Part shown: positions 59,259 to 62,595 of the stretch, piece by piece
Position numbering within the stretch: position 1 is the first letter of the stretch
How the letters are laid out: every line of letters starts with the position of its first letter
Source: a virus
Reading direction: 5' to 3' (one strand)
DNA length: 64,000 bases
Virus record (IMG/VR): IMGVR_UViG_3300020159_000429
Span: 18,577 to 82,576 of that record
Position numbers and translations under genes: made by a program
The notes under the pieces: model-generated
The model's input: only the letters and a program-made list of their open reading frames with translations
Told to the model about the DNA's origin: nothing
The model's database searches: none

Positions 59259-61925
59259 TTACTCAAAATCAAATAATTTGTTGAAGTTGTTGTCACTTCG
59301 AGTTGAACCAATGTCCCATTCTAGGACGCCAATTAAGTTTTCTAGCTTTTCATCAATGACTGCGTTTTCCATCTCAGCATCGTTAAAAGGTAAATCCTTA
59401 AACCATTGTGGTAGTCTAAGTTCATCTACAGGATATGCCACTGAGGTATAGCCCATTGGATTGTCTTTGACCTTACAGACAATAACTTTCGCACCATCTG
59501 TAACAGCCATTGAGTACTTGTCATCGTTCATACGCTTGAGAGTGTTCCAGTTCAAACTAGCACGAACGTGTCCAGGCATGTTGGTCTTGCCTGCTTTCTT
59601 TTCTTTAGATTGATATTCAGTGATATTGTTAGCACGTTTGGGACTACCTTTCTCCCAACCAGGACGAGTTTTAAACTCTGTACGAAAGTCGGTGATATAC
59701 TCAAGGATTTTTTCCTCAGGTACACCGTTCAAGACTTTTTCTAACACCTGACTTAAGAAGTCTTGAATAACAACAGGAGTATCCGAACGCTTCAAATCTA
59801 ATCCCATAGCTTTGATTTTACCCGGTTTGCCATCAACATCAGTGCGTTTGCCTTCTTTATCGTAATAAAGGATAGCATAACGCTTTTTAGTCATGAACAA
59901 GCCTTTACTAGCAACAAACTCTCGGCCAGCTCGAATAACTTCACCGCGTGACTTTGGACAATGAAACTTATCCTGCATCATTTTAGGAAAGCTGGCATTA
60001 ACTTCATCAGCAATTTGATCATAAAGCTGTACTACAGTTTCTTTAGTCCACGGAAGTTGTCCTGACTCAATCTCTTTCTTTAGTACAGGATACGCAGAGA
60101 AGTAACACGAGTCTGTATCACCGTAGATAACAGCTTTACCTCTATAGTCATATTCGCCTGTGGCAATTTCGTTAATTTTACTAGCCATGTGTTTAACAAT
60201 TTGACGACCACTTAGCGTAGTTGACTGACCAATCCGATTGTCAAAGAATCTACAACCAGGATTAAGAATAGCACCATATAGACTGTTTAGGTTAATCTTC
60301 TTAACTAGCTGACGTTTATCCCAGTATTCTTCTTCAATCTTGTTGCCGCTGGCAATACATTCTTTAAGTTTGGCCTGCATTTCTTTACGTTCAGCATACC
60401 AACGTTTTAGTAGACCAGGAATGATACCTTCTTTCTCATAGGTAAAGATTGTGCCGTTGGCACTGATCATCCACGGCTGATTACTATCAAAGATTAAATC
60501 ATTAATTTGAGCACCGGATAATGTATCACTACCGCCGTTTTCCCAGTCAATGATGATTTCTTTAGAAACGTTACGTTCCATTACTAGTTCGTATTCTAAA
60601 CTGCCAAATACGCCTTCCCAGGCAGCGGCAAACGACTTGCCCTTGCCCATTTCTTGATCAATATAATTTTTAGTATATTCGGGACGTAGTTGTCCCACGA
60701 TAGTTTCGGGTCCCATGTTTAGGGCACGAATTGCTGACGGATACAGGGAGTTAATGTCCACAGAGCCAATCCATTCGTGGATGCCTTTCTTTGGATAAGC
60801 AACATACGCACCTGCTGCTGGTTCACTGCCTGGTTCACGTTTAATTCGATTAGGAACAACAAATCCTCTGCGATGTGCTTCGTTGATAATAGCTTGCTCT
60901 GTTACAGCAACAGCACCCATAGTAGTTGCCAACAATACTGTGTTTTCATGAGCAATTTTATTAGCTAGATCTAAAAATTTAAGTTTTTTATCTAATTCGT
61001 CTAACAGAGTTGTATCGTTCCTGTTATATTCGATAAACTTTTTAAAGTCTTTGTTATATAATTGATCTAATGTGCCTTCGTATTGAGTTTTAGTTTTAGA
61101 TAACTCATATTCGGCAATGGCATCTAAACGATAAGTGTGTCGTTCTTCGTAGGTATACTTTCTATACAGTTCTAAATAGTCTAGGTGTACACGGCCAATG
61201 AGATCATATGTAACAGCAGCCTTGCCGTACTTTTCATATTCTCGCTTTTTCGGGTATTGATTCCATAGGCAGAATCTACGTGTATCATCTTTACTAAGAG
61301 CTTTAGTAATCCTGTTAGTTGTATACGGAATATCAAAGCCTTCTGAGTTCCACCCACTTAAAATATCAGCATCTTGAATAATATTTAAAAAGTTATCCAG
61401 CAACTCAGCTTCTGTTTCAAACAGATATGTGTTGGGAAATTCAGCAACAGCCGCCGTTGCTTCGGCCATTGTCATGGTCTTTGGCGGAACAGCTAGACAG
61501 ATAAGTGTATCTAACCATTGTAGGTGAACAGCAATAGCGGTGATTGGCATAAACGCATCATCTGGTGCCGCATAGCCACGTTCTGGATCAAAGTCTACCT
61601 CAATGTCAAAGAACGCTACGTTTAATTTAGGAGCGTCTTGATTTAGATAGTTGTCTTCTAAACAACGATAGATGGGATTGATATCTGATTCATACAGTTT
61701 AATCCCGCTGTGTATTTTTAGTTCTTTGTGTAAGTCTTTGAGATTCTTACAAGTTATGCGACTAAGAGGATCACCGTTAGTGCTTACATATTTGCCCTTA
61801 GGGTCTTGAAAGTAAAAGATGTGTCGAGCAGGATAATCTTTGTAATGTCTATTACCTTTATCGTCACGTTCGACGATATGAATAGTATCCTGATCGCGTT
61901 CATAGAATGCGTCAACGTAGCTCAT
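59259..61925 (-). CDS. Family B DNA polymerase (T4 gp43-like)
   Basis: Exo FDIE, GWNSEGFDIPY, YNRND; Pol DINSLYPS, KINLNSLYG, YGDTDS, KKRY; start at MSYVD after SD GAGG. Confidence 0.97.
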   Translation of the reverse strand: MSYVDAFYERDQDTIHIVERDDKGNRHYKDYPARHIFYFQDPKGKYVSTNGDPLSRITCKNLKDLHKELKIHSGIKLYESDINPIYRCLEDNYLNQDAPKLNVAFFDIEVDFDPERGYAAPDDAFMPITAIAVHLQWLDTLICLAVPPKTMTMAEATAAVAEFPNTYLFETEAELLDNFLNIIQDADILSGWNSEGFDIPYTTNRITKALSKDDTRRFCLWNQYPKKREYEKYGKAAVTYDLIGRVHLDYLELYRKYTYEERHTYRLDAIAEYELSKTKTQYEGTLDQLYNKDFKKFIEYNRNDTTLLDELDKKLKFLDLANKIAHENTVLLATTMGAVAVTEQAIINEAHRRGFVVPNRIKREPGSEPAAGAYVAYPKKGIHEWIGSVDINSLYPSAIRALNMGPETIVGQLRPEYTKNYIDQEMGKGKSFAAAWEGVFGSLEYELVMERNVSKEIIIDWENGGSDTLSGAQINDLIFDSNQPWMISANGTIFTYEKEGIIPGLLKRWYAERKEMQAKLKECIASGNKIEEEYWDKRQLVKKINLNSLYGAILNPGCRFFDNRIGQSTTLSGRQIVKHMASKINEIATGEYDYRGKAVIYGDTDSCYFSAYPVLKKEIESGQLPWTKETVVQLYDQIADEVNASFPKMMQDKFHCPKSRGEVIRAGREFVASKGLFMTKKRYAILYYDKEGKRTDVDGKPGKIKAMGLDLKRSDTPVVIQDFLSQVLEKVLNGVPEEKILEYITDFRTEFKTRPGWEKGSPKRANNITEYQSKEKKAGKTNMPGHVRASLNWNTLKRMNDDKYSMAVTDGAKVIVCKVKDNPMGYTSVAYPVDELRLPQWFKDLPFNDAEMENAVIDEKLENLIGVLEWDIGSTRSDNNFNKLFDFE

Positions 61926-61936
61926 ATATTTTCCTC

Positions 61937-61986
61937 TGCCATTTTCGGCTGGCAAACCAAAATGATCATTTGTGGCTGATCAAACC
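61937..61986 (-). promoter_or_regulatory. Tandem structured RNA element (two pseudoknot-like units) in the polymerase 5' leader
   Basis: GGTT-TGATCA-GCCACAAA-TGATCA and GGTT-TGCCA-GCCGAAAA-TGGCA; the second abuts SD GAGG. Confidence 0.65.
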
Positions 61987-61992
61987 TTTCTC

Positions 61993-62283
61993 TTAGATAT
62001 TTATTAAACGTATTAATGCTACTACGTCTATAGTGACAATTAGCAAATAATTTGCTACCATTCCTGCACTGCGTCTTGTCCAAGCTGCCCAACCAAATAT
62101 TGTACATTGAATAATAAACAATGGATACAAAATTAAAAAAGGGGGATTAGGTAGAGTGGCACCCATCCATATAGTACAACAGATACTCATGAACCAAGCA
62201 GCAATTTCTAAAATAAATCTCAATGGCCATTCACGATAATCTGCCTTAGCCCAGTTATATGTTTTTTGAAAAAACTCTATCAT
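61993..62283 (-). CDS. Small membrane protein (about 3 TM)
   Basis: Three hydrophobic stretches. Confidence 0.65.
   Translation of the reverse strand: MIEFFQKTYNWAKADYREWPLRFILEIAAWFMSICCTIWMGATLPNPPFLILYPLFIIQCTIFGWAAWTRRSAGMVANYLLIVTIDVVALIRLINI
61998..62004 (-). promoter_or_regulatory. Late-like promoter ATAAATA upstream of the polymerase leader
   Basis: ATAAATA 11 nt upstream of the first structured unit. Confidence 0.45.
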
Positions 62284-62540
62284 TCAGGTAGATTCTTAGT
62301 AACACCAAGGATACCTTCAATTTCTTCCCACTCTGCTTCGTGATCTTTCCAATTATCTTTACGAGCAATTTTAATTGCTTTGTTAATCCAACTTGGTTTG
62401 ATTTGTAATTCTTCTGCTACTGCTTTGACTGTTTCTTTAAGACCTTCGTTGAGATCTTCAATTTCACGAAGTACATTGCCACCTTCGTTGATTAGTCTTT
62501 CTAATTTTGCCTTTTCTTCAGGACCGTACATTTTAGCCAT
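62280..62540 (-). CDS. Double-stranded DNA-binding protein (T4 DsbA/GapR-like)
   Basis: KL..LI.E....L.EIE.L....KE....V.EE..IKP..I.KAI.I helical pattern. Confidence 0.6.
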   Translation of the reverse strand: MAKMYGPEEKAKLERLINEGGNVLREIEDLNEGLKETVKAVAEELQIKPSWINKAIKIARKDNWKDHEAEWEEIEGILGVTKNLPE

Positions 62541-62566: not shown

Positions 62567-62595
62567 ATTATATAGCCAACAAAAAAGCCAGTCAA
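62567..62595 (-). promoter_or_regulatory. Sigma70 promoter heading the replication block
   Basis: TTGACT-N17-TATAAT on the minus strand. Confidence 0.75.

Follow-up and report, generated by a model that had tools for sequence, protein, structure and literature searches.

Two predicted tandem pseudoknots ahead of the DNA polymerase gene of uncultured giant T4-like phages

The DNA polymerase gene of a giant T4-like phage is preceded by a tandem RNA element, and comparative evidence points to each of its two units being an H-type pseudoknot, with both helices backed by compensatory changes. The element lies in a stretch of 64,000 nucleotides (nt), here called the window, which is part of an 82.6-kb IMG/VR contig (record IMGVR_UViG_3300020159_000429) amounting to about 23% of the phage. 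Among IMG/VR contigs it heads the polymerase operon in two clades of uncultured giant phages, with 178 distinct leaders collected. An earlier, sequence-only reading of the window had named the leaders of homologous polymerases as the place to check the element, and conservation and covariation were both found there. The element constitutes an RNA family absent from Rfam and from the searchable literature. We infer that the leader very probably acts as a switch on translation of the polymerase, of a kind not described before.

Layout and covariation of the leader element

The polymerase gene (59259..61925, on the minus strand, as are all features of the leader) encodes a family-B DNA polymerase (PolB) of 888 amino acids (aa) of the T4 gp43 type, with the Pfam families DNA_pol_B and DNA_pol_B_exo1 and 27% identity to T4 gp43 (E 5e-59). 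Its AUG start codon, behind the tandem element, is at 61923..61925. Upstream lies an open reading frame (ORF) of 96 aa (61993..62283; TAA stop at 61995-61993), which has no Pfam family and is not counted in the element. The stop codon of this ORF is 6 nt ahead of unit 1 and is separated from the polymerase AUG by 67 nt, and the same ORF is found upstream of the polymerase in relatives with and without the element. From 5' to 3' the leader runs GAGAAA, unit 1, UUUU, unit 2, GAGG, AAAAUAU and AUG.

Each unit comprises a hairpin stem (S2) and a predicted pseudoknot helix (S1), in which a triplet upstream of the stem pairs with the first three nucleotides of the hairpin loop. Unit 1 (61963..61986), a predicted pseudoknot on the grounds of its sequence and of covariation in S2 and S1, reads GGU-U-UGAUCA-[GCCACAAA]-UGAUCA. 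It is made up of the S1 5' strand GGU (61986-61984), loop L1, a single U (61983), the S2 5' strand UGAUCA (61982-61977), the S1 3' strand GCC, which forms loop nucleotides 1-3 (61976-61974), loop L3, ACAAA (61973-61969), and the S2 3' strand UGAUCA (61968-61963). A UUUU linker (61959..61962), whose counterparts in relatives vary between 4 and 7 nt, joins it to unit 2 (61937..61958), the predicted H-type pseudoknot that forms the core of the element and reads GGU-U-UGCCA-[GCCGAAAA]-UGGCA. Here the S1 5' strand is GGU (61958-61956), L1 is U (61955), the S2 strands are UGCCA (61954-61950) and UGGCA (61941-61937), the S1 3' strand is GCC (61949-61947) and L3 is GAAAA (61946-61942). The Shine-Dalgarno (SD) sequence GAGG (61933..61936) follows immediately 3' of the last base of unit 2. 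Both hairpin stems are perfectly paired, over 6 bp in unit 1 and 5 bp in unit 2, and both loops are 8 nt long with the pattern GCC..AAA. The description that had been given of this leader, as two GGUU units with 8-nt GCC..AAA loops, perfect stems and an abutting SD, matches the window letter for letter.

Taken from the single genome, the evidence for the element is weak, and it is comparison that proves it to exceed chance. As a nested structure, the 96-nt region gains no stability over shuffled sequences (z = -0.67), and a loose one-unit pattern is expected 0.24 times by chance in the window. A unit-2 model (R1) scores 32.2 bits on the element (E 6e-6), its sole strong match in the 64 kb, and the unit models found nothing else in the window beyond the polymerase leader.

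Comparison of relatives, of which IMG/VR contains hundreds from uncultured phages, supports the S2 hairpins. Loci gathered through the polymerase protein (80 loci, 79-97% identical) gave 54 distinct leaders; unit 2 is present in 54/54 and unit 1 in all except one, L058. The unit-2 stem is paired in 99.3% of cells across these leaders, and three of the five base pairs vary in both partners (CG/UA/UG/AU, AU/GC/CG and AU/UA). Shuffles and slid registers came nowhere near this level of pairing, and the RNAalifold consensus finds the same stem. Unit 1 occurs in two main forms, one with an AU-rich stem of 5-6 bp, as in the window, and one with a GCGG/CCGC stem that often has one bulged base; the two share the loop GCCAYAAA. 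MAFFT misregisters the bulged GC-type stems, and the 58% pairing seen in its alignment is an artefact, so loop-anchored units were used instead. In 150 such units the four loop-proximal pairs show 3-5 pair types each; as these four pairs were required for selection, their pairing rate is given by construction and only the diversity of types is informative. The fifth, outer pair, which was not required, is unpaired in 33 of the 150. The covariation first noted between the two stems of one genome thus extends beyond it, both hairpins covarying across relatives.

The S1 helix covaries as well. In 158 distinct leaders, comprising the window clade and a second clade reached through locus L120, the unit-1 triplet and loop start are GGU/GCC in 115, GGC/GCC in 17 and AGU/GCU in 5, and neither AGU/GCC nor GGU/GCU occurs once. 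The outer S1 pair of unit 2 is G:C in 158 and A:U in 20 of all 178 leaders, with no mismatch; that of unit 1 is G:C in 131 and A:U in 5 of 136 examples, again with no mismatch. For each unit this pair changed at least three times on the polymerase tree, counted as minimum changes on a FastTree of the first 300 polymerase residues. A scan for the AGU...GCU version of unit 2 led to a sister polymerase clade where that version is common (the unit-2 triplet of L445, for example, is AGU). In the protein-anchored sample of this clade, unit 2 carries AGU/GCU, GGU/GCC, GGC/GCC or AGC/GCU and is never mismatched, and its unit 1 shows further S1 versions (AGU/ACU, GGU/ACC, AGUC/GACU, GGUC/GACC and UGUC/GACA). 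Collection-wide scans for compensated unit 2 returned at least 67 true elements with GGU...GCC among 77 matches listed and at least 9 with AGU...GCU among 119; for the uncompensated combinations there were none, either for AGU...GCC among 119 matches listed or for GGU...GCU among 118. The pairing of GGU with the loop GCC, suggested from the window as the basis of an H-type pseudoknot, therefore covaries without an uncompensated case. A fourth U-A pair that had been proposed to extend it cannot form, the A in question already being part of the hairpin stem. A noisy automatic S1 finder offered another candidate fourth pair, in which loop position 4 joins the base 5' of the triplet; it is inconsistent across leaders and was rejected.

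These comparisons define a common anatomy. S1 has 3 (sometimes 4) bp, formed between (G/A)G(U/C) and a loop-opening GC(C/U); L1 has 1-3 nt (U, UA, AUU, GU, AA or CG); S2 has 4-7 bp; there is no L2; and L3 has 5 nt with the A-rich pattern NNAAR. The conserved bases are exactly those of S1 and the AAR of L3, leaving L1, loop positions 4-5 and the sequence of S2 free. By classical pseudoknot geometry, an L1 of 1-3 nt crossing 4-7 bp and an L3 of 5 nt crossing 3 bp are sterically enough. L3 would lie in the S1 minor groove. Rfam 15 contains no matching family at E up to 10 for the window region, or at E up to 1 for seven diverse leaders; among searchable papers, none was found on tandem pseudoknots before a phage polymerase.

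The same data bear on whether the conserved feature resides in DNA, as a palindrome that binds protein, an origin, a priming site, a promoter or a terminator. Such a signal could draw on the TGATCA palindrome of unit 1, with its GATC site, and on the TTTT that follows unit 1 in the window. In the relatives, however, the arms vary freely and the loops are conserved, the reverse of what is expected of an operator in double-stranded DNA. Furthermore, 100 units found by loop motif and position alone contain 457 Watson-Crick, 11 G.U and no A.C cells. This asymmetry of G.U over A.C assigns the structure to RNA of the mRNA sense, not to a DNA palindrome. Covariation between the upstream triplet and the loop would also be unreadable on duplex DNA, the T-run is not conserved and no terminator-like site scored. 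The covariation pattern contradicts a DNA-level signal, which we consider exceedingly improbable.

Distribution, loss and neighbours of the element

The element is tied to one place. All of the stem-paired pattern matches listed (67/67) are at the head of the polymerase operon, including six in which a small ORF, of 57-63 aa or (in L115 and L144) of 204 aa, stands between element and polymerase; the element then stays at the operon head. Seven relatives' genome records in which the models detect the element, two of them complete (G001, 372 kb; G009, 329 kb), have the polymerase leader as its only site, the weak extra model matches in G001 and G009 being coding sequence that lacks the motif. 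Models R2 and R3 have low sensitivity for the sister-clade forms, and the polymerase-leader element of G008 (374 kb) was missed by them and found by eye. Uniqueness thus holds only for genomes in which the models detect the element and is not established for G008.

By polymerase, the element extends to proteins about 65-70% identical to that of the window; at greater distances it is missing. Among cultured phages, even the closest polymerases fall below 50% identity to that of the window. Blastn gave no DNA match for the leader region in cultured phages, and the nearest cultured relatives by polymerase (Phosso, Atu_ph07, Ecwhy_1 and PHA46) have unrelated leaders that lack the element.

The inserted ORFs have features of their own. 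Small ORFs of 50-63 aa occur between element and polymerase in several lineages of both clades (L108, at 180-353; L463, at 852-1004; L109, L132, L099 and L354), and the complete genome G008 has the same arrangement. In L108, L109, L132 and L463, where the product was read, it is Cys-rich, and in these four the stop codon overlaps the polymerase ATG (ATGA). L115 and L144 have a 204-aa ORF at the same place.

An operator for a protein other than the polymerase can be set against these observations. The binding partner would be a phage repressor (RegA-like, a protein that binds single-stranded DNA (SSB) or the product of the small Cys-rich ORF) or a host protein. A pair of similar adjacent sites would be suited to a dimer, general repressors of translation exist in T4 (PMC3014915), and the small Cys-rich ORF does lie between element and polymerase in several lineages. 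A general repressor, however, is expected to have several targets, and in the genomes where the models detect the motif it is confined to the polymerase leader; RegA binds unstructured, AU-rich sites (PMC3014915); and the Cys-rich ORF is absent from most element-bearing phages, that of the window included. We regard control by another protein as unlikely.

Around 30 distinct sister-clade leaders lost the element; in its place stands a box, TTGACT-N17-TAAAAT or TATAAT, that is 6-7 nt upstream of the ATG. The element-less sister polymerase genes have no SD (L432, L435, L420, L465, L425 and about 25 more; at about positions 960-1000 of each locus), and judged from these leaders the polymerase mRNA of this group looks leaderless. 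Unit 1 has decayed in a few lineages (L393, L411, L412, L417, L446, L449, L453 and L354), and in L058 (2935-2965) and L129 it is replaced by a terminator-like hairpin and T-run while unit 2 is kept. Replacement and decay of unit 1, together with the losses of the whole element, indicate a core formed by unit 2, an accessory role for unit 1 and, for the element as a whole, that of a regulatory extra which can be dispensed with. A TTG start codon, unlike the ATG of the window, is used by 43 of 166 element-bearing polymerase genes (loci L003-L081 and others) and by 1 of 39 without the element, counts that ignore shared ancestry.

The gene neighbourhood bears on a riboswitch interpretation. A homologue of DpdA, corresponding to a 536-aa protein of the window, is encoded a few kb from the polymerase in 10/10 related genome records (G001-G010; for example G004:C1:37356-38990), and is present in those ten irrespective of the leader element. 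Each pseudoknot might bind a small molecule, either a 7-deazaguanine-type base from the neighbouring gene cluster or a nucleotide, such that a ligand-stabilized fold beside the SD alters polymerase translation. The topology, that of a small, SD-adjacent H-type pseudoknot whose third loop is rich in A, resembles the smallest riboswitch classes, preQ1-I and SAM-II, and the tandem arrangement, the DpdA and deazaguanine pathway just downstream and the single locus per genome in the genomes searched all fit. Ranged against it are the lack of an Rfam match, the absence of an L2 and of any conserved unpaired base beyond AAR with which to build a pocket, an L1 that varies in length and sequence, and a unit 1 that diverges, decays or is replaced. 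Moreover, phages with the same DpdA gene lack the element, no alternative pairing hides the SD, and the controlled gene is neither biosynthetic nor a transporter. A tandem riboswitch is accordingly an unlikely explanation in our estimate. Its more specific version, a mini-riboswitch of 25-30-nt units sensing a 7-deazaguanine precursor from the adjacent DpdA-linked pathway or a deoxynucleoside triphosphate, is distinctly unlikely, although if it were true the polymerase would be made only when building blocks or the protective base modification are available. The idea of a deazaguanine sensor, raised by the sequence-only reading, gains no support because DpdA-bearing relatives lost the element and because the pseudoknot explains every conserved nucleotide.

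The closest known counterpart for such a reading, preQ1-I (RF00522), is likewise a tiny H-type pseudoknot, whose third loop is A-rich and which adjoins or overlaps the SD, and it shares the link to 7-deazaguanine chemistry that is found in the window phage. It differs in that the window element has no Rfam match and reversed helix proportions (S1 of 3 bp, S2 of 4-7 bp). The element stem also runs straight into GCC, so that the missing L2 leaves no counterpart of the ligand-pairing C; L1 is unconserved; and the gene that follows encodes a polymerase and not a queuosine function. If a ligand were the effector, the element would be among the smallest riboswitches and, to our knowledge, the first on a replicative polymerase gene.

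The ribosome-binding site and a possible operator

The position of unit 2 relative to the ribosome-binding site is conserved: in 170 of the 178 leaders, 0-4 nt separate the fifth base pair of unit 2 from the start of the SD core. The consensus fold leaves both SD and start codon unpaired. As the RNA itself thus does not occlude the ribosome-binding site, any control must come from something bound or stacked alongside.

The transcript context fits this picture. A sigma-70-like promoter, TTGACT-17-TATAAT, matches the consensus at 11/12 positions (62567..62595, minus strand; a consensus match only). It stands upstream of a dsbA-like ORF (62280-62540), and transcription from it is likely to continue into the polymerase leader; the leader probably belongs to an early polycistronic transcript driven by this strong sigma-70-like site. 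A leader inside a polycistronic transcript fits translational rather than transcriptional control. A TAAATA-like motif, which recalls the T4 late-promoter box, overlaps the upstream stop codon or is next to it (window 61996-62006, minus strand); it is found 8-15 nt ahead of unit 1, at the matching place, in many leaders.

Two other roles for the structure were rejected. A readthrough or frameshift signal for the upstream ORF is incompatible with a stop codon and a polymerase AUG that are 70 nt apart and out of frame, and neither the stop-to-unit-1 distance nor the gene found upstream is constant. An intrinsic terminator is not indicated either, since relatives do not keep the U-run behind unit 1 and no terminator scored.

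It could be that the pseudoknots tune expression by themselves, as a structural cis element with no dedicated effector. They might keep the ribosome-binding site open in a polycistronic mRNA, serve as a ribosome standby site or enhancer, or retard 5'-to-3' decay, or processing, of the polymerase segment. All conserved bases fall within S1, S2 and the A-rich L3, L1 and loop positions 4-5 being free, and this economy, an SD that is never paired in the consensus fold and a leader within a likely polycistronic transcript are all in keeping with such a role. Yet a stabilizer would not need two units whose order and spacing are maintained, or so exact a junction with the SD, and simple insulating hairpins would not normally retain a pseudoknot with its purine/pyrimidine pattern for so long. 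Loss of the element in some 30 lineages further shows that the ribosome-binding site is functional when the element is gone. We judge an effector-free element possible but rather unlikely.

The explanation we favour, tentatively and at somewhat less than an even chance, is that the leader is an autogenous translational operator bound by the polymerase itself. Its best precedent comes from T4-type phages, in which gp43 of T4, RB69 and RB49 binds a hairpin beside its own ribosome-binding site and represses translation when off DNA (PMC3014915). As the comparisons indicate, the operon's leader RNA provides two adjacent, compact H-type pseudoknots. A factor on them, above all on unit 2, would exclude the 30S subunit from the adjacent SD and start codon, or trap it there. 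The likeliest factor would be polymerase not engaged on DNA, as in the autogenous repression by gp43 of those three phages, and polymerase synthesis would thereby be tied to replication demand. Unit 1 may act as an accessory second site for affinity or cooperativity. The single target at the polymerase leader, the abutment to the SD and the covarying fold were counted in favour of the operator, and dispensability, seen in the roughly 30 losses and in unit-1 decay, fits a regulatory extra.

Several points weigh against the polymerase as effector. The choice of effector is purely inferred for every member of the family, and the polymerase is only 27% identical to T4 gp43. Some T4-related polymerases do not autoregulate (PMC3014915). 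Model R2 has no match on the T4 gene 43 leader, its best match in that 10-kb stretch lying elsewhere (E 0.41), and the T4 operator, a lone hairpin, is 7 nt away from the SD and forms no pseudoknot. Finally, the fold alone can account for all conserved nucleotides, and nothing specifically indicates a protein.

Comparison with known operators and implications

The gene 43 operator offers the closest parallel for a polymerase-bound leader. Both belong to the leader of a gene for a T4-type family-B polymerase and adjoin its ribosome-binding site, both occur at one site per genome, and both are present in some relatives and absent from others. The T4 hairpin, as we read its leader, has 5 bp and an 8-nt loop, and both loops have an A-rich 3' half, those of the window type ending in AAA or AAG. 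The operator loop carries UAAA in RB49 and UAAC in T4 and RB69, and its 3' AA or AC bases matter for binding (PMC3014915). The two differ in that the window leader has two units, each predicted to be pseudoknotted, where gene 43 has one; for gene 43 there is no evidence of a pseudoknot (PMC3014915). The loop is GCCNNAAR here and AAUAACUC in the gene 43 operator, and the distance to the SD is 0-4 nt here and 7 nt there. By sequence, the element is not related to the T4 operator.

Two further operators are relevant. The T4 gp43 hairpin and gp32 pseudoknot had been invoked as precedents for the window leader, and both were correctly cited (PMC3014915). Like the element, the gene 32 leader has a small H-type pseudoknot ahead of a replication gene in a T4-type phage, and that of gp32 is a protein-binding operator (PMC3014915). 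It controls the SSB gene, however, and not the polymerase, and consists of a single far-upstream pseudoknot and an unstructured tract coated cooperatively by gp32, whereas there are two here and the second touches the SD. In Escherichia coli rpsO there is likewise a pseudoknot at the translation start, which S15 stabilizes, blocking initiation (PMC3014915). It serves as a model for a bound, SD-adjacent pseudoknot that traps or excludes the 30S subunit, though gene and organism are unrelated. The rpsO pseudoknot includes the SD and start region; the window element leaves both outside.

Covariation in both pseudoknot helices gives this RNA family unusually clean comparative support, and the family occurs widely among uncultured giant phages from freshwater and other aquatic settings. 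Its element-bearing and apparently leaderless polymerase genes in sister phages provide a natural contrast and a ready test bed. If the polymerase is the effector, the element would offer a small, well-defined RNA for a polymerase-RNA complex; the structure of a gp43-RNA complex was unsolved as of a 2010 review (PMC3014915). In that case, T4-type autogenous control would have a much greater age, and a wider variety of RNA solutions, than one would gather from the three phages studied.

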